This document shows, one piece after another, positions 1 through 10,490 of a stretch of DNA of 10,490 nucleotides (positions within the stretch are counted from its first letter, which is position 1; every line of letters starts with the position of its first letter). The notes beneath the pieces are model-generated. The model had not been told where the DNA came from. It saw nothing but the letters and a program-made list of their open reading frames with translations, and did no database searches. Position numbers and translations under genes: made by a program. Location of the stretch: the UHGV virus genome UHGV-1632715; one strand, given 5' to 3'. This stretch comes from a virus.

Positions 1-7
1 GGAATGA

Positions 8-298
8 TTAACAGCTTTTGTTTGGATACTGCCTTCGTGAGTGAACTACATTTACGATCTCGATGTTAGATGCTGTTACTCGGTAAAGTATTATGTAGTT
101 AGGATGGGTCACTATCTCACGAAGGCCTAGAGCTCTTTCGCTTGGTGGATACAGGTAAGGGTGTTCAGTAAGTGACAAAACTGATGTTTCAATGCGTATT
201 TTTAGTCTACGTGCAGCGGGAGGGTTTTCCTTGGCAATATAGGCTACGATCTGACGCAAATCATCACGCGCAGAAGGTAGCCATAAAATGGGCAGCAT
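8..298 (-). CDS. parE2: Type II toxin, ParE/RelE superfamily (ParE2-like)
   Basis: 96-aa ORF starting MLPILWLPSARDDL with a ParE-like layout by eye. Its ATG overlaps the upstream antitoxin stop by one base (TAATG on the coding strand). Paralog number (parE1 vs parE2) is not certain from memory. Confidence 0.8.
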   Translation of the reverse strand: MLPILWLPSARDDLRQIVAYIAKENPPAARRLKIRIETSVLSLTEHPYLYPPSERALGLREIVTHPNYIILYRVTASNIEIVNVVHSRRQYPNKSC

Positions 299-489
299 TA
301 CTCACTCCTGTTCGTCGAAGCTATTTGCGCAATAAGGTTTTCCATTTCAGCCATTACTTCGTCATGCGGAATTGCAGGACGGGGGTCTGCGAGGCTTGCT
401 GCCACTTTGGTGCGTAACCATTCGTTATAGCTGTTTTCTTGTTCGATTGTTTCAAATTCTGAAATTATCGGGGAAAGGACTGTACTCAT
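298..489 (-). CDS. paaA2: Small antitoxin of the PaaA2 family, partner of ParE
   Basis: 63-aa ORF. The segment SEFETIEQENSYNEWLR..SLADPRPAIPHDEV matches my recollection of PaaA2 from E. coli O157; the C-terminal third differs from what I remember. GGAGG lies 7 nt upstream of the ATG (plus-strand CCTCC at 497-501). It sits immediately upstream of, and is translationally coupled to, the toxin. Confidence 0.75.
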   Translation of the reverse strand: MSTVLSPIISEFETIEQENSYNEWLRTKVAASLADPRPAIPHDEVMAEMENLIAQIASTNRSE

Positions 490-506
490 GTTCTAACCTC
501 CTCAGA

Positions 507-1007
507 TTAGGCGCGAAGACCTTTTTGCGCCTCTAGCCACCGCGCAACGGTTTCTTCAATTGATTCTTTTTTCTCCTTCATTTCCTTAAGCATTTTCTCT
601 TTGTCTTCTTTTGGGAAAGCCCTGAACGTCTGGATCAAATCTCGCTCTATAGGTTCTATATTAAACGGAAGTTCGTTTTCCGATTGTTCCATCTCTGCGG
701 GTAAAGCGACAACATTATCCTGCTGCAGTTCTTGGGGGTACATCCTTACAATTCGTAACAAGTCTGCCATATCTGGTCTAATTGACTCAGGCGGAACTTG
801 TAGCAACCCAGCGAACTTGATAACAGCCTCTAGATTTAAAGGTGTCTGACCATTTAGATAATGGCTTACTGCCCCTTGTGTCGAAAAACCCAGAATTTCT
901 GCCGCACGCTCTTGGGTTAACCCAAGTTGAGTTTTTTTCGTCGTCCAGATTTCTTTCAGTCTCTGGGCGGCTTGCAGGTCGATCTCTGACAGGGGTTTTC
1001 TTTTCAT
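507..1007 (-). CDS. paaR2: Prophage repressor, XRE/CI-type HTH (PaaR2-like), no recognisable S24 peptidase domain
   Basis: 166-aa ORF with an N-terminal HTH (QLGLTQERAAEILGFSTQGAVSHYLNG) of lambda-CI pattern. The C-terminal half is charged/helical with no GDSM or Ser-Lys autocleavage motif seen. It is divergent from the cro-like gene across an operator-bearing spacer and is followed 17 bp later by the antitoxin gene. Confidence 0.8.
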   Translation of the reverse strand: MKRKPLSEIDLQAAQRLKEIWTTKKTQLGLTQERAAEILGFSTQGAVSHYLNGQTPLNLEAVIKFAGLLQVPPESIRPDMADLLRIVRMYPQELQQDNVVALPAEMEQSENELPFNIEPIERDLIQTFRAFPKEDKEKMLKEMKEKKESIEETVARWLEAQKGLRA

Positions 1008-1041
1008 ACCTTCAATTCTAATAAGATTATTAATCTCTTTG

Positions 1042-1058
1042 AAATAGCAGTGCTATTT
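1042..1058. promoter_or_regulatory. Candidate operator: perfect 17-bp palindrome AAATAGCAGTGCTATTT
   Basis: Exact inverted repeat around a central G, located in the divergent repressor/cro-like intergenic region. Confidence 0.5.
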
Positions 1059-1067
1059 ACTTTTAAA

Positions 1068-1082
1068 AATAACAATGCTATT
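1068..1082. promoter_or_regulatory. Candidate second operator half-site pair AATAACAATGCTATT
   Basis: Differs from the first palindrome core (AATAGCAGTGCTATT) at two positions; centres are about 25 bp apart, and a TATTAAT -10-like hexamer lies nearby. Confidence 0.45.
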
Positions 1083-1114
1083 AATATTCATGGTCACATA
1101 ACATGAGGTGAACA

Positions 1115-1378
1115 ATGAATCTTGGAGAATATTTGCATCATTCCCGTATAACCCAGAAAGATTTTGCTGAAATTGTTGGGGTAACCCAAGGGATGGTAAG
1201 CCATGTTATTACTGGACGGGCGAAACTTACGGGGGGGAAAGTTTTACGCTGGTGTGAAGCAACAGGGTGGGTAGTGACCCCGCACGAGATTGATAGCAGT
1301 ACTTACCCCAACCCAACCGATGGCATACCTGTTGACTATCAGGCTAACACACAACCCGCGCTGGGAGTTGATTCATGA
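1115..1378 (+). CDS. ydaS: Cro-like HTH regulator (YdaS family)
   Basis: 87-aa ORF with HTH ITQKDFAEIVGVTQGMVSHVITG. GAGGTG SD at 1105-1110 precedes the ATG at 1115. It is the first gene of the rightward operon and its stop overlaps the next start (ATGA). Confidence 0.7.
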   Translation: MNLGEYLHHSRITQKDFAEIVGVTQGMVSHVITGRAKLTGGKVLRWCEATGWVVTPHEIDSSTYPNPTDGIPVDYQANTQPALGVDS

Positions 1379-1800
1379 AAATCAAGCATGAACACATCCG
1401 CATGGCGATGAATGTCTGGGCGCATCCGGACGGCGAAAAAGTACCGGCTGCGAAAATTACCAAAGCGTATTTCGAGCTGGGAATGACGTTCCCGGAACTG
1501 TATGACGACAGCCATCCGGAAGCCCTGGCCCGTAATACCCAGAAAATTTTCCGTTGGCTGGATAAAGACACCCCTGATGCTGTTGAAAAAATGCAGGCTC
1601 TGTTACCGGCGATCGAAAAGGCGATGCCGCCTTTGCTGGTGGCCCGTATGCGCAGTCACAGCTCTGAATATTACCGTGAGATCGTCGAACGGAGGGATCG
1701 GCTGGTGAAAGATGTGGATGATTTTGTCGCAGCGGCGATCGCCTGGGGCACCCTGACTAACAGTGGTGGTCAGCCTGGTAATGCTGTTGTCGTGCATTGA
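1375..1800 (+). CDS. ydaT: YdaT-family protein (CII functional analogue of Rac/CP-933P-like prophages)
   Basis: 141-aa ORF with N-terminus MKIKHEHI and C-terminus VVVH, matching my recollection of YdaT. Start overlaps the ydaS-like stop. Confidence 0.65.
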   Translation: MKIKHEHIRMAMNVWAHPDGEKVPAAKITKAYFELGMTFPELYDDSHPEALARNTQKIFRWLDKDTPDAVEKMQALLPAIEKAMPPLLVARMRSHSSEYYREIVERRDRLVKDVDDFVAAAIAWGTLTNSGGQPGNAVVVH

Positions 1801-1868
1801 CCAACAATATTCATGCCGGATTTCTTCCGGATGTTCGAGGGTAAAGTTCGGTATCAGATGAGGTGAGT

Positions 1869-2900
1869 ATGGCTAATGCCTGGCTCAGATTGTGGCATGA
1901 CATGCCAAATGATCCCAAATGGCGAACCATTGCCAGGGTCTCAGGACAGCCAATCGCAACAGTGATGGCGGTGTATATCCACCTTCTGGTGAGTGCGTCA
2001 CGAAATGTCACGACATGTCACGGCGTGTCACTACGTGGTCACATTGATGTCACGACGGAAGATTTAGCAAGTGCGCTTGATGTGACGGAAGACGTAATTG
2101 ATTCAATTTTGCATGCAATGCAGGGGCGGGTTCTGGATGGTGACCTTATTTCCGGATGGGAAAAACGTCAGGTGCTGAAAGAGGACAATGGTAACGTTTC
2201 GCAAACGGCAAAATCCCCGGCAGAGCGCAAGAGAGCGCAGCGGGAGCGGGAAAAGCTGCGGAAACATAATGCTGATTGTCACGATGAGTCACGACGTGTC
2301 ACGCATCTGTCACGACAAGTCACGACAGATAAAGATACAGATACAGAATTAAACCCCACACATAACGCGCGCGAGAGTATTCCGACCAGTGAGTCGAATG
2401 GTGCGCCGTTGCAGACAGCCGAACCTGAATACCTGGACGGCCTGAGCGAACCCATCGGGAAATTTTCGATGACTACTGTCTGGCAGCCGTCGCCGGATTT
2501 TCGACAACGGGCGGCAGTGTGGGGTATGGCTCTGCCTGAGCCGGAATTTACACCTGCTGAGCTTGCCGCATTCCGGGATTACTGGATGGCGGAGGGGAAG
2601 GTTTTCACGCAGGTTCAGTGGGAGCAGAAATTTGCCCGCCACGTGCAGCACGTCAGGGCACAGGTAAAACCAGTCAGCAAGGGGGGAAGCCATGCAGCAT
2701 CAGGTGGCACGGCATCACGGGCAGTTCAGGAAATCCGGGCAGCACGCGAACAGTGGGAACGTGACAACGGATTTATCAGCAACGGAAACGGCCTGGAAGC
2801 TGTGGGAGCTTATGGGGGAGGTGTATTCGAACCGCTGGACTCAGAAGAACGGGGCCGCACCTTCGAAGCTCTGGATTGCCCAGATTGGCACGATGACTGA
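1869..2900 (+). CDS. Replication initiation protein (O-like replisome organizer) with DnaT-like C-terminal region
   Basis: The N-terminal WLRLWHDMPNDPKWRTIA region is replisome-organizer-like. The central/C-terminal segment GKFSMTTVWQPSPDFRQRAAVWGMALPEPEFTPAELAAFRDYWMAEGKVFTQVQWEQKFAR aligns by eye with the E. coli DnaT C-terminal domain. The gene contains two iteron clusters. ATG 1869 is preferred over GTG 1863 because GAGGTGAG at 1858-1865 serves as the SD. Confidence 0.75.
   Translation: MANAWLRLWHDMPNDPKWRTIARVSGQPIATVMAVYIHLLVSASRNVTTCHGVSLRGHIDVTTEDLASALDVTEDVIDSILHAMQGRVLDGDLISGWEKRQVLKEDNGNVSQTAKSPAERKRAQREREKLRKHNADCHDESRRVTHLSRQVTTDKDTDTELNPTHNARESIPTSESNGAPLQTAEPEYLDGLSEPIGKFSMTTVWQPSPDFRQRAAVWGMALPEPEFTPAELAAFRDYWMAEGKVFTQVQWEQKFARHVQHVRAQVKPVSKGGSHAASGGTASRAVQEIRAAREQWERDNGFISNGNGLEAVGAYGGGVFEPLDSEERGRTFEALDCPDWHDD
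1997..2058. repeat. Iteron cluster 1: about six GTCAC(G)-core repeats at ~10-bp phasing
   Basis: Repeat starts at 1997, 2007, 2017, 2027, ~2038 and 2049 (gtcacgaaat / gtcacgacat / gtcacggcgt / gtcactacgt / ggtcacattgat / gtcacgacgg), inside the initiator gene. Confidence 0.6.
2278..2329. repeat. Iteron cluster 2: five GTCACG-core repeats at ~10-bp phasing, followed by an A/T-rich stretch
   Basis: Repeat starts at 2278, 2288, 2298, 2309 and 2319, followed by gataaagatacagatacagaattaaa at 2330-2355. Confidence 0.6.
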
Positions 2901-3354
2901 ACAGCAAATCCGGCTGGTCTGCCGTCAGTGCATGGACCGCTGCCGGGCGGGTGAAACGTGGCCCCCGGACCTGGCTGAGTTTGTTGCGCTGATTTCGGAG
3001 AGTGGGGCAAATCCATTTGGTCTTACGGTGGATGCCGTGATGGAAGAGTACCGGCGCTGGCGCAATGAATCCTGGCGATACGACGGGAGTGATAAATACC
3101 CGTGGCCACAGCCTGTGCTGTACCACATCTGCCTCGAAATGCGTACCAGAGGGATTGAGCGCCAGATGACGCAGGGTGAGTTAAAACGACTTGCGGAACG
3201 GCAACTGACGAAATGGGCAAAGCATGTTGGTAACGGGATGAGTGTTCCGCCAGTGCGACGACAACTGGAAGGGGCGAAACACCCGCAAGGGCCAACGCCA
3301 ATTGAACGGCTGAAACAGGAATACGAACGCCGGAAGGCAGCTGGTTTTATTTGA
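2692..3354 (+). CDS. Replication protein P-like (helicase loader family of lambda P)
   Basis: By-eye similarity to lambda P: YPWPQPVLYHICLEMR vs YPWKSNAHYWLVTNLYQNMR, GMSVPPVRRQLEG vs GEAIPEPVKQLPVMGG, and an upstream TMTEQQ-like segment. ATG 2692 is preceded by GGGGGG at 2681-2686. It overlaps the initiator gene by 209 nt in another frame; alternative starts are 2812 and 2893. Confidence 0.7.
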   Translation: MQHQVARHHGQFRKSGQHANSGNVTTDLSATETAWKLWELMGEVYSNRWTQKNGAAPSKLWIAQIGTMTEQQIRLVCRQCMDRCRAGETWPPDLAEFVALISESGANPFGLTVDAVMEEYRRWRNESWRYDGSDKYPWPQPVLYHICLEMRTRGIERQMTQGELKRLAERQLTKWAKHVGNGMSVPPVRRQLEGAKHPQGPTPIERLKQEYERRKAAGFI

Positions 3355-6950: not shown

Positions 6951-6964
6951 GCGGGTGCTTGAGG
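6951..6964 (+). promoter_or_regulatory. 5' element of hok mRNA (tac-like) complementary to the 3' fbi-like element
   Basis: GCGGGTGCTTGAGG is the near-perfect reverse complement of CCTCAACGCACCCGC at 7329-7343, with one unpaired base. Confidence 0.55.
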
Positions 6965-7065
6965 CTATCTGTCTCAGGCATGAACACCAAAAGGCAGATA
7001 GAGAAAAGCCCCAGTTAACATTACGCGTCCGGCAAGACGCTTAACATTAATCTGAGGCCATATCT

Positions 7066-7272
7066 ATGCTCTACACACGTAGGTTAGCCTCTTACGGACC
7101 GAAAGGTCAAGGAGAAGCAGGCTATGAAGCAGCAAAAGGCGATGTTAATCGCCCTGATCGTCATCTGTTTAACCGTCATAGTGACGGCACTGGTAACGAG
7201 GAAAGACCTCTGCGAGGTACGAATCCGAACCGGCCAGACGGAGGTCGCTGTCTTCACAGCTTACGAACCTGA
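7066..7272 (+). CDS. mok-like overlapping reading frame (modulator of hok translation)
   Basis: 68-aa ORF in a different frame that starts 58 nt upstream of hok and spans almost all of it, as in hok/mok loci. Confidence 0.45.
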   Translation: MLYTRRLASYGPKGQGEAGYEAAKGDVNRPDRHLFNRHSDGTGNEERPLRGTNPNRPDGGRCLHSLRT

Positions 7273-10146: not shown

Positions 10147-10466
10147 ATTTGTGGTAAATGGGCGGCTGGTGGGTGTGGTGGTTGTTGCTTTCCCGTTGCT
10201 GAAAAAGAAAGCATCAGGCGATTAGCAGGGTATCAGTTACCCGTTGAAATTTTTAAATACCTCACAATTCAGGCGGTTGACTGTTGTCTGGTTTGCGGGG
10301 AGTTTGTTAAAAGAAACTGGCATGGTGAATCCCCCTGTGCGGAGGGGCAATCAGCAACTGGTGTTTTGTCACCGACCCTTATCCTTTCTGTGCGGGTTCA
10401 GGTGCTGATACTGAACTCACCGGGAGGCACCCGGCACCATGCAATGGCACATAGCGCCACTCTCCA

Positions 10467-10490
10467 GCCCCTCTCCGGAGGGGCTTTCTT
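10467..10490 (+). terminator. Hairpin with short T-rich tail, possible terminator, truncated by window end
   Basis: Stem GCCCCTC / GAGGGGC with loop TCCG, followed by tttctt. Confidence 0.35.

Follow-up and report, generated by a model that had tools for sequence, protein, structure and literature searches.

Part of the window, the whole stretch of 10,490 nt analysed here, forms the left half of a lambdoid immunity region, the lysis-lysogeny switch of an E. coli prophage with int/xis/exo/dicB to the left and O/P-type replication genes to the right. Three genes are packed on its minus strand. These are a repressor gene with an HTH_3 match (507-1007; 166 aa), a paaA-family antitoxin gene matching Pfam PaaA2 (298-489; 63 aa) and a parE-family toxin gene matching Pfam ParE_toxin, a ParE1/CP-933M-like allele (8-298; 96 aa). 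Between the stop codon of the repressor gene (507-509) and the ATG of the antitoxin gene (489-487) there is a gap of 17 nt (490-506), which holds a GAGGAGG Shine-Dalgarno sequence 5' of the paaA-family gene. Base 298 belongs both to the antitoxin TAA (300-298) and to the toxin ATG (298-296), a one-base overlap. This packing had been described in an earlier, sequence-only reading of the DNA, and both the ORF list and the sequence agree with it. A consensus scan of the window predicted no promoter or terminator between the three genes. An intrinsic terminator lies 3' of parE, outside the window, in L001, a locus identical to window positions 1-2248. We infer that the repressor, paaA and parE are co-transcribed as one operon. 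When compared with their relatives, all three genes showed purifying selection (dN/dS 0.03-0.22, and 0.03-0.10 for the toxin gene, with synonymous sites near saturation). This marks them as genuine genes, as opposed to chance ORFs.

The assignment of the pair to the ParE toxins and PaaA2-family antitoxins held in Pfam and PDB searches. The 96-aa protein matched the ParE_toxin family (PF05016; 4e-18, 66.2 bits, cutoff 23) and, over residues 1-93, the ParE2 crystal chain 5cw7_B (5.7e-35, PDB sequence search). In the alignment it is 64% identical to ParE2 and 86-96% identical to E. coli class-1 alleles. The 63-aa protein matched PaaA2 (PF21217; 2.9e-22, 78.8 bits, cutoff 27), NCBIfam NF050103 (1.6e-26, 92.1 bits, cutoff 50) and the PaaA2 structure 3zbe (1.7e-22, PDB sequence search), and it is 63% identical to PaaA2. 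It is short, positioned directly 5' of parE and, lacking a DNA-binding domain, requires regulation by another protein. For the O157 homologue, toxicity, neutralisation by the cognate antitoxin, Clp-lability of the antitoxin and addiction have been described (PMC8630535). By analogy, ParE of the window would be toxic, PaaA would neutralise it and be turned over in a Clp-dependent manner, and the locus would be addictive. ParE2 reportedly does not bind GyrA.

The repressor matched Pfam HTH_3 (1.7e-9). AlphaFold and profile searches divide it into a DNA-binding domain (aa 1-~90, nt ~738-1007, minus strand), a disordered linker (aa 93-112) and a C-terminal domain (aa ~119-165, nt ~510-653). The N-terminal domain is about 35% identical to that of lambda cI (1lmb; phmmer 1.6e-9), and lambda cI N-terminal domains were also the best Foldseek matches of the model (TM 0.84-0.94, rmsd 1.1-1.5 Å). 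The C-terminal domain is modelled as short and all-helical, with two helices in ~50 aa. The last ~45-60 aa are homologous to PaaR2-/PaaR1-type proteins (48-68% identity), whereas the DNA-binding domain belongs to another lineage. The C-terminal domain also matched the C-terminus of DicA (NCBIfam NF007257 positions 75-130, E 1e-6), while the whole repressor reached 28.7 bits against this family, whose cutoff is 101. Judged from these alignments and models, the repressor is a chimera of a lambda-cI-like DNA-binding domain and the conserved helical C-terminal domain of the PaaR proteins. Neither the PDB sequence search nor Foldseek returned a PaaR2 or DicA structure; their matches were confined to N-terminal domains of lambda cI and to generic XRE proteins. 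The C-terminal domain therefore has no structural precedent there.

A separate observation, absent from the sequence-only reading, is that the repressor is no PaaR2 orthologue. Only the C-terminal ~50 aa are shared, and the DNA-binding domain is lambda-cI-like. We rejected orthology for the DNA-binding domain and kept homology for the C-terminal domain.

No Peptidase_S24 domain (PF00717) was found in the repressor by Pfam at E<=0.1. The search is able to detect this domain, since PF00717 was found in P0033, a distant relative that shares the N-terminal domain. The sequence-only reading was thus right that S24 motifs are missing, and the short all-helical C-terminal domain of the AlphaFold model fits this. 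On these two grounds we ruled out RecA-type autocleavage of the repressor. We also rejected an SOS-controlled antirepressor: the window has no LexA box (CTGTN8ACAG), and the single match in L001 is no more than expected by chance. PaaR2 has no peptidase motif and does not respond to mitomycin C (PMC8630535).

Upstream of the repressor, the consensus scan found a PRM-like promoter (1015..1043, minus strand; -35 TTCAAA, 17 nt, -10 TAGAAT). No properly spaced Shine-Dalgarno sequence was seen 5' of the repressor ATG. Since the -10 element ends only 7 nt before the A of this ATG (1007), the repressor mRNA is probably leaderless, like those of lambda cI and paaR2, with a start site deduced from the promoter position. 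Experimentally, paaR2 was demonstrated to be leaderless in the CP-933P system (PMC8630535). A palindrome, TAATAAGATTATTA, was also seen over the PRM -10 (1019-1032).

The motif AATAGCANTGCTATT occurs between the repressor and the cro-like gene, at the position of OR. Copy 1, AATAGCAGTGCTATT (1043..1057), is a perfect 7-1-7 palindrome and abuts the PRM -35. Copy 2, AATAACAATGCTATT (1068..1082), has 1 mismatch, lies 25 bp from copy 1 and overlaps the putative PR -10. A third copy was not found at up to 3 mismatches. Outside the window the same motif stands at OL, just beyond parE, in L001, L003 and L007, and the 25-bp spacing recurs at OL in L001. All three loci with the cI-like N-terminal domain in their repressor have the motif, compared with none of the four that have other DNA-binding domains. 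Since PaaR2 has an unrelated DNA-binding domain, we assigned the operators from motif position and co-occurrence only. The putative PR-like promoter of the cro-like gene (1056..1084, plus strand; TTTACT, 17 nt, TGcTATTAA) was read by eye and is below the scanner threshold. Its layout is the same as that of the PL-like promoter which the scanner found at OL in L001 (TTTACA, 17 nt, TG-TATTGT).

These sites bear on whether the locus has lost its function and is only left over from a cryptic prophage in decay. Decay would agree with the L001 prophage, identical to that of the window, which has an IS4 insertion and several frameshifted genes, and with CP-933P and CP-933M, both of which are cryptic (PMC8630535). 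However, the three ORFs are intact and under purifying selection, diverged alleles have kept the operators at OR as well as at OL, and 842 of 5426 complete E. coli genomes carry the TA cassette. We therefore regard a functionless remnant as extremely unlikely. The repressor type of the window was found in 72 of the same 5426 genomes. Among 50,697 phage records the repressor-TA block was absent and the ydaT end alone matched, so the block is known from prophages and not from deposited phage genomes.

Divergent from the repressor lies a gene for a cro-like (YdaS-type) HTH regulator (1115..1378, plus strand; HTH_3 4.9e-6, PHROG 35 transcriptional repressor 3.7e-16), in the same position as in CP-933P. 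It is followed by ydaT (1375..1800, plus strand), which encodes a CII-like activator (Pfam YdaT_toxin 2.6e-10; PHROG 163 'CII-like transcriptional activator' 4.8e-47). At the ydaS/ydaT junction we predicted a YdaT site, TTGATTCATGAAAATCAA (1368..1385), which has zero mismatches to the recognition motif TTGATTN6AATCAA given in PMC9986795. This is the PRE-equivalent position, as in CP-933P, where PRE lies between ydaS and ydaT (PMC8630535).

Such neighbours argue for a regulator that belongs to the prophage. The three genes could instead form a self-contained tripartite TA system with a split antitoxin, in which the regulator works mainly for the TA pair and not as master repressor of the prophage. 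The family was originally described as a three-component TA system, and the need of PaaA for an outside regulator would suit this. Nevertheless, the operator motif recurs at OL/PL, where it would control early-left genes, and the repressor faces the cro-like and cII-like genes with their exact YdaT site. Its DNA-binding domain is lambda-cI-like and in relatives is carried by S24-type phage repressors (P0033). Moreover, PaaA-ParE pairs in other Proteobacteria do without a PaaR-like gene: none was found by tblastn near the pairs in 80 non-E. coli loci, where the upstream ORFs are heterogeneous. Since the pair exists elsewhere without it, the regulator is a part of the prophage and not of the TA system, and we consider a self-contained tripartite system very unlikely.

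With operator copies on either side of the repressor-TA block, the TA pair has the position of rexAB, between OL and OR. The rexAB-equivalent slot downstream of the repressor, proposed in the sequence-only reading, is thereby supported, also by the cro-like, ydaT and O/P neighbours. The likeness is positional only: we found no homology of the pair to RexA or RexB, and its sole Pfam matches are ParE and PaaA2. Prophage TA modules have often been proposed as defence systems. A pair in this slot, between OL and cI, would be made alongside the repressor in lysogens and might mainly be an anti-phage module for abortive infection or exclusion, a RexAB replacement and not an addiction module. The biological role of paaA-parE is left open in PMC8630535. 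Against a defence role, the pair shows no kinship with RexAB, no PADLOC defence model matched any of the three proteins, and a defence phenotype for paaA-parE is not reported in the literature we searched. Experiments on the homologue demonstrated post-segregational killing and the stabilisation of plasmids. An anti-phage role as the main function therefore seems improbable to us, and we favour addiction of the immunity region.

One contiguous stretch of the operon, which we call the interface block (173..354, minus strand), encodes antitoxin residues 46-63 and toxin residues 1-42, the N-terminal alpha-hairpin. No other part departs strongly from PaaA2/ParE2. Compared with the PaaR2-type locus L005, 30-50% of the nucleotides are identical within the block and 67-83% on either side of it. 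When class 1 and class 2 proteins of E. coli are compared, identities of 0.11 and 0.52 are seen inside the block and of 0.85 and 0.80 outside. The window antitoxin has the C-terminal peptide MAEMENLIAQIASTNRSE where PaaA2 has ERRMAERFAKMRKERSKQ. The suggestion that the C-terminal third of the antitoxin is a variant toxin-binding region was essentially right: this region differs from PaaA2 and covaries strictly with the toxin hairpin. It is not unusual, however, since three C-terminal classes were found, of which the window has the commoner one and PaaA2 represents the minority. The window C-terminus matches the second O157 paralogue, of CP-933M type (86% identity). The classes appear to be ancient and at least three in number.

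The two halves of the interface block covary (Mantel r=0.53, reached in 0 of 999 permutations). In ParD-ParE structures, an antitoxin segment contacts the N-terminal hairpin of the toxin. Taken with the covariation, this structural knowledge suggests that the C-terminal part of PaaA fits the toxin hairpin. In the literature searched we found no residue-level PaaA2-ParE2 contacts, only the general description of a 'helix-helix-strand' around ParE. PaaA1 and PaaA2 do not cross-neutralise, according to PMC4803016, which cites Hallez 2010.

We tentatively propose, and give it a little less than an even chance, that paaA-parE consists of two independently inherited modules. The outer module would cover the N-terminus of the antitoxin together with the C-terminal body of the toxin, and the inner one would be a junction block of ~180 bp that codes for both specificity surfaces. 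The inner block would exist in at least three ancient classes, and recombination would apparently pass it among alpha-, beta- and gamma-proteobacteria, giving insulated paralogues in one step. The cassette would stay tied to the repressor C-terminal domain while the DNA-binding domain, the operators and cro are swapped, and heteroimmune prophages would for this reason all keep the same addiction module. The literature searched holds no two-module description of paaA-parE, and the original papers on the system may already note part of it. The covariation of antitoxin tail and toxin hairpin within one block provides a simple, testable reason for the lack of cross-neutralisation between the O157 paralogues, and natural chimeras for studies of ParE-antitoxin specificity.

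Taken together, the gene identities, the architecture, the operators, the covariation and the purifying selection observed here, and the published experiments on the O157 homologue, in our judgement make it very likely that the locus is an immunity region in which a non-cleavable CI-analogue repressor forms an operon with paaA and parE and which would be protected by addiction. The operon would be transcribed leftward from the PRM-like promoter. The repressor would bind AATAGCANTGCTATT at OR and, in identical or related genomes, at OL beyond the parE terminator. It would thereby shut off the rightward cro-like/ydaT operon and the leftward early operon and sustain its own operon, so that the TA pair would be produced in the lysogenic state, like rexAB. 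PaaA would neutralise ParE by wrapping around it, and the surfaces of the antitoxin tail and the toxin hairpin would set the cognate specificity. Since the antitoxin would be labile, as in paaA2-parE2, losing or replacing the immunity region would poison the cell through the stable ParE. Both the prophage and its immunity region may be stabilised in this way. The addiction payoff is itself a proposal, since ParE2 activity was detected in neither state of the O157 switch (PMC8630535).

Among known systems, canonical ParD-ParE pairs (RK2, Caulobacter, Mesorhizobium, Vibrio) have the same toxin fold and an antitoxin segment that wraps ParE likewise (PMC8251345). They differ in the antitoxin, since PaaA has no DNA-binding domain and relies on a separate regulator. 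DicA of the Qin prophage (E. coli K-12) shares the cI position, the match over the C-terminal ~55 aa and the lack of S24, but its N-terminal domain is different and the family score of our repressor is far below the cutoff. We know of no TA pair 3' of dicA. Lambda cI-rexA-rexB is also a leftward, PRM-driven operon between OR and OL with accessory genes 3' of the repressor and then a terminator, and the repressor N-terminal domains are homologous (~35% identity, TM ~0.9). Unlike in lambda, the S24 autocleavage domain is missing from our repressor, a type II TA pair unrelated to RexA/RexB takes the place of the accessory genes, and two copies were detected at each operator site instead of three.

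The paaR1-paaA1-parE1 genes were reportedly presented by Hallez in 2010 as a second O157:H7 system. From the strain (EDL933), an ECs1072-family neighbour and a statement in PMC8630535, we infer that L002 is this paralogue, of CP-933M/Sp4. Its toxin and antitoxin are 86% identical to ours, and the repressor C-terminal domain is the same. The antitoxin C-terminus (MAEMENLIAQIA...) and the toxin hairpin (SARDDLRQI...AARRLKIRIE) are also the same, which places the two loci in one interface class. The L002 repressor (133 aa) has an N-terminal HTH of another type, so its immunity specificity and operators differ from those of the window.

The closest described relative by arrangement is paaR2-paaA2-parE2 of prophage CP-933P. 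Hallez is said to have placed it in the immunity region in 2010, and Sterckx reportedly studied this system of CP-933P/Sp12 (E. coli O157:H7) in 2014 and 2016. In CP-933P the counterparts of CI, Cro and CII are PaaR2, YdaS and YdaT, respectively (Jurenas 2021, PMC8630535), and the same work describes PL/OL, the YdaT-activated PRE, bistability and plasmid stabilisation. The window agrees with CP-933P in the order and packing of the three genes and in their place opposite ydaS/ydaT. It also agrees in a PaaA without DNA-binding domain, a repressor without S24 whose C-terminal ~50 aa are conserved, a probably leaderless PRM-type promoter, operators at OR and OL and a YdaT site at PRE. The two differ in the toxin (64% identity) and antitoxin (63%), nearly all of it in the antitoxin C-terminus and the toxin hairpin, and the window belongs to interface class 1 whereas PaaA2/ParE2 belong to class 2. 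Our repressor has 166 aa and is lambda-cI-like, compared with the 123 aa of the PaaR2 type (L005 CDS), which starts with MQKKE. PaaR2 itself forms octamers. The operators follow AATAGCANTGCTATT, while the CP-933P palindromes are built on the GTTTAGTAA consensus. Two copies per site were detected in the window and L001, whereas lambda and CP-933P have three or four.

The locus is thus a new allele of the known paaR-paaA-parE system and not a new kind of system, in line with the sequence-only reading, which had called it probably not novel. Since a TA pair in a prophage lysogeny switch is already published, the window leaves the general picture unchanged. Its modest value is comparative: the same TA cassette and repressor tail are joined here to another DNA-binding domain, lambda-cI-like, with other operators. 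Such a combination agrees with a published proposal in which the TA pair safeguards the immunity region when heteroimmune phages recombine.

The three minus-strand genes are packed tightly. The stop codon of the repressor gene (507-1007, 166 aa) lies 17 nt from the ATG of the antitoxin gene (298-489, 63 aa), with a GAGGAGG ribosome-binding site in the gap, and base 298 is common to the antitoxin TAA and the ATG of the toxin gene (8-298, 96 aa; TAATG). Both spacings were described by the sequence-only reading and are seen in the sequence. The protein families proposed there were matched in profile and structure databases. The 96-aa protein matched Pfam ParE_toxin (4e-18) and, among solved structures, ParE2 (5cw7_B, 5.7e-35). 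The 63-aa protein matched Pfam PaaA2 (PF21217, 2.9e-22), NCBIfam NF050103 over its cutoff (1.6e-26) and the PaaA2 structure (3zbe, 1.7e-22), and the 166-aa protein matched Pfam HTH_3 (1.7e-9). Against diverged alleles, all three genes showed a dN/dS of 0.03-0.22, indicating strong purifying selection.

The repressor is chimeric. Its N-terminal ~90 residues matched the lambda cI DNA-binding domain (1.6e-9), and Foldseek placed this domain on lambda cI with a TM of 0.84-0.94. The AlphaFold model (26 homologues, mean pLDDT 76) predicts a helical domain (residues 8-89) that is joined by a disordered linker (93-112) to two C-terminal helices (119-130 and 133-165). The repressor had been proposed to lack S24 autocleavage, and we observed no Pfam match to Peptidase_S24 at E<=0.1. 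An S24 fold in the C-terminus was ruled out, as the model has just 50 helical residues there. This C-terminal domain is the only part that the window repressor has in common with the PaaR1- and PaaR2-type repressors (48-68% identity) and with the DicA C-terminus. Since PaaR2 is reported to octamerise (PMC8630535), it is plausibly an oligomerisation module. The repressor relatives P0013-P0023 (240-255 aa) carry cI-like and PaaR1-like HTH domains in tandem, followed by the PaaR C-terminal tail. In Salmonella and others, the same N-terminal domain bears a short helical tail that is more divergent, and in the relative P0033 a 41% identical N-terminal domain is joined to a genuine S24 peptidase domain. 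As far as the sequences tell, E. coli prophages all retain the toxin-antitoxin (TA) cassette and the repressor tail, and swap the DNA-binding domain, the operators and cro. This is in line with the proposal that, when heteroimmune phages recombine, the TA pair protects the immunity region (PMC8630535).

The repressor ATG (1007) and the cro-like gene (1115) are 107 bp apart. The spacer holds two putative operator copies, a perfect palindrome AATAGCAGTGCTATT at 1043-1057 and a copy with one mismatch at 1068-1082, 25 bp from the first. A PRM-like promoter is predicted on the minus strand (-35 TTCAAA, -10 TAGAAT at 1020-1015), and its -10 ends 7 nt ahead of the A of the repressor ATG. This position, together with the lack of a correctly spaced Shine-Dalgarno before that ATG, suggests that the repressor mRNA is leaderless, as was shown by experiment for lambda cI and paaR2 (PMC8630535). 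A 6-2-6 palindrome, TAATAAGATTATTA, lies over the PRM-like -10 at 1019-1032 and might serve as a third operator or be bound by the cro-like protein specifically. An exact TTGATTN6AATCAA is found at 1368-1385, where it spans the stop codon of ydaS and the start of ydaT; PMC9986795 gives this motif as the site of the CII-analogue YdaT. The prophage CP-933P of E. coli O157:H7 has a CII-activated PRE-like promoter at the equivalent ydaS/ydaT junction. The ydaT product matched the PHROG 'CII-like transcriptional activator' (4.8e-47). The window contains no LexA box.

The window ends just before OL, so we turned to L001, the E. coli SW070917 prophage locus, which is base-for-base identical to window positions 1-2248 and divergent thereafter. 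There, an intrinsic terminator comes after parE, along with two operator copies (11913-11927 and 11938-11952, with the same 25-bp spacing as at OR) and a leftward PL-like promoter toward ydfA/dicB, with its -10 inside an operator. This stretch (L001 11913-11993) corresponds to window coordinates of about -87 to -8. The motif was present at OR and OL in three loci sharing the window-type DNA-binding domain (L001 and the E. coli loci L003 and L007) and absent from four loci with other repressor types, which supports the AATAGCAGTGCTATT-type motif as the candidate repressor operator. This conservation of the operators, like the dN/dS, contradicts an inert remnant, the least credible of the alternatives. 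With operators on both sides, the repressor-TA block sits between OL and OR, the very position that cI-rexA-rexB has in lambda, and the proposed rexAB-equivalent slot is upheld. A self-contained TA module with a split antitoxin is very improbable, as it is contradicted by the OL operators and the cro/cII surroundings. We also consider a Rex-like anti-phage role of the TA pair unlikely, since PADLOC gave no match and no phenotype of this kind is reported. Most probably, the block is a lysogen-expressed, repressor-driven and probably leaderless operon encoding a non-cleavable CI analogue and an addictive PaaA-ParE pair. The repressor would drive the operon in the lysogen, yielding the CI analogue, PaaA and ParE together. 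It would not be cleaved, and the stable ParE would be freed when the immunity region is lost or replaced.

Window bases 1-1500 are 100% identical to the SW070917 chromosome, where L001 is annotated as a lambdoid prophage integrated beside potC. It carries integrase, excisionase, exonuclease, dicB and ydfA left of the TA pair, and the cro-like gene, ydaT, a DnaT-domain replication protein, a lambda-P-like protein, hokD, rusA and others right of the repressor. An IS4 transposase insertion in the early-left region (L001 8549-9895) and several frameshifted genes suggest that this prophage is defective (cryptic). The repressor-TA block was absent among 50,697 deposited phage genomes. The TA cassette was present in 842 of the 5426 complete E. 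coli genomes, and the window-type repressor in only 72. The window also has a sok antisense RNA match at 6953-7126 (+) (Rfam RF01794, 109.5 bits) and hokD is annotated in L001, a second, type I TA module (sok/hokD) in the same prophage as paaA-parE. A match to the gammaproteobacterial sRNA STnc100 (Rfam RF02076, 132.5 bits) is clipped by the window end (10291-10490, +). The mechanical ORF list gives an overlap of ~200 nt between the DnaT-domain replication gene (1863-2900, +) and the lambda-P-like ORF (2692-3354, +). The P gene of L001 has a later annotated start and an 8-nt overlap, so the long start is probably not the used one.

We fetched and aligned representatives of the E. coli variants. 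L005 is of the PaaR2/PaaA2/ParE2 type: its antitoxin equals the PDB sequence and its repressor starts with MQKKE, the start found by N-terminal sequencing of PaaR2 (PMC8630535). L002 (EDL933), which adjoins an ECs1072-family gene, is of the other type, and we infer that it is the paaR1-paaA1-parE1 system of CP-933M, where a homologue was placed by the same authors (PMC8630535). The window antitoxin is 86% identical to that of L002 and 63% to that of L005; for the toxin the values are 86% and 64%. The antitoxin C-terminal third does differ from PaaA2, as had been noted, but it is not peculiar to the window: the peptide MAEMENLIAQIA... is shared with L002 and four further E. coli alleles.

In the alignments, differences from the PaaA2/ParE2 type cluster at residues 46-63 of the antitoxin and ~8-42 of the toxin. 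Because the genes abut, the antitoxin tail and toxin hairpin are encoded side by side in a single DNA block (about 173-354), where nucleotide identity to L005 is 30-50% versus 67-83% on either side. Scanning one genome per species, we found PaaA-ParE pairs at 80 loci (L008-L087) in alpha-, beta- and gamma-proteobacteria, 52-73% identical to the window toxin. With truncated ORFs left out, 74 pairs from other loci and the window pair were analysed, and three antitoxin-tail classes were observed. The 59 class 1 pairs, including the window, have the tail VMAEMxxxI... and always the toxin N-terminus SARxDL...AARRLK. Class 2 (11 pairs, including PaaA2) combines VERRMAERLAxLR with ESADxDL...AAERLW, and class 3 (5 pairs) VMAKxRALLDxKK with EWxxSA...AAxRLF, likewise always. 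Mantel tests on distance matrices of the operon segments (999 permutations) showed which segments are co-inherited: antitoxin 46-63 correlated with toxin 1-42 (r=0.53, reached by 0/999), as did antitoxin 1-45 with toxin 43-92 (r=0.52, 0/999). For antitoxin 46-63, r was 0.03 against antitoxin 1-45 (reached by 289/999) and 0.06 against toxin 43-92 (142/999). Within the E. coli, Acidithiobacillus-like and Acetobacteraceae loci, class-1 and class-2 operons are 74-86% identical in their outer parts and only 9-14% in the antitoxin tail. Recombination or gene conversion, with breakpoints on both sides of the interface block, would produce such a pattern.

In ParD-ParE structures, the C-terminal part of the antitoxin lies against the N-terminal hairpin of ParE. 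The general description of antitoxin-ParE binding in PMC8251345 agrees with such a contact. The covariation of the block offers a structural reason for the missing cross-neutralisation between PaaA1/ParE1 and PaaA2/ParE2, stated in PMC4803016, which cites Hallez 2010. Neither a PaaR-like regulator nor a conserved upstream gene was found beside the pairs outside E. coli (L008-L087), which supports a mobile two-gene cassette captured downstream of a prophage repressor. PaaA has no DNA-binding domain, also where no PaaR-like gene adjoins.

The arrangement has already been described, as the sequence-only reading expected when it assigned the genes to the paaR2-paaA2-parE2 family. In CP-933P, PaaR2 is a functional CI analogue, YdaS a Cro analogue and YdaT a CII analogue (Jurenas et al. 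2021, PMC8630535). The same paper reports a PL/OL on the far side of the TA genes, a bistable switch, plasmid stabilisation by the locus, and a PaaR2 that lacks the autocleavage motif and shows no response to mitomycin C. The original observation was real and correctly interpreted, and what may be new is limited to the covariation of the interface cassette and the modular build of the repressor. The window is an allele of this known system, with a class-1 interface and a new repressor DNA-binding domain.
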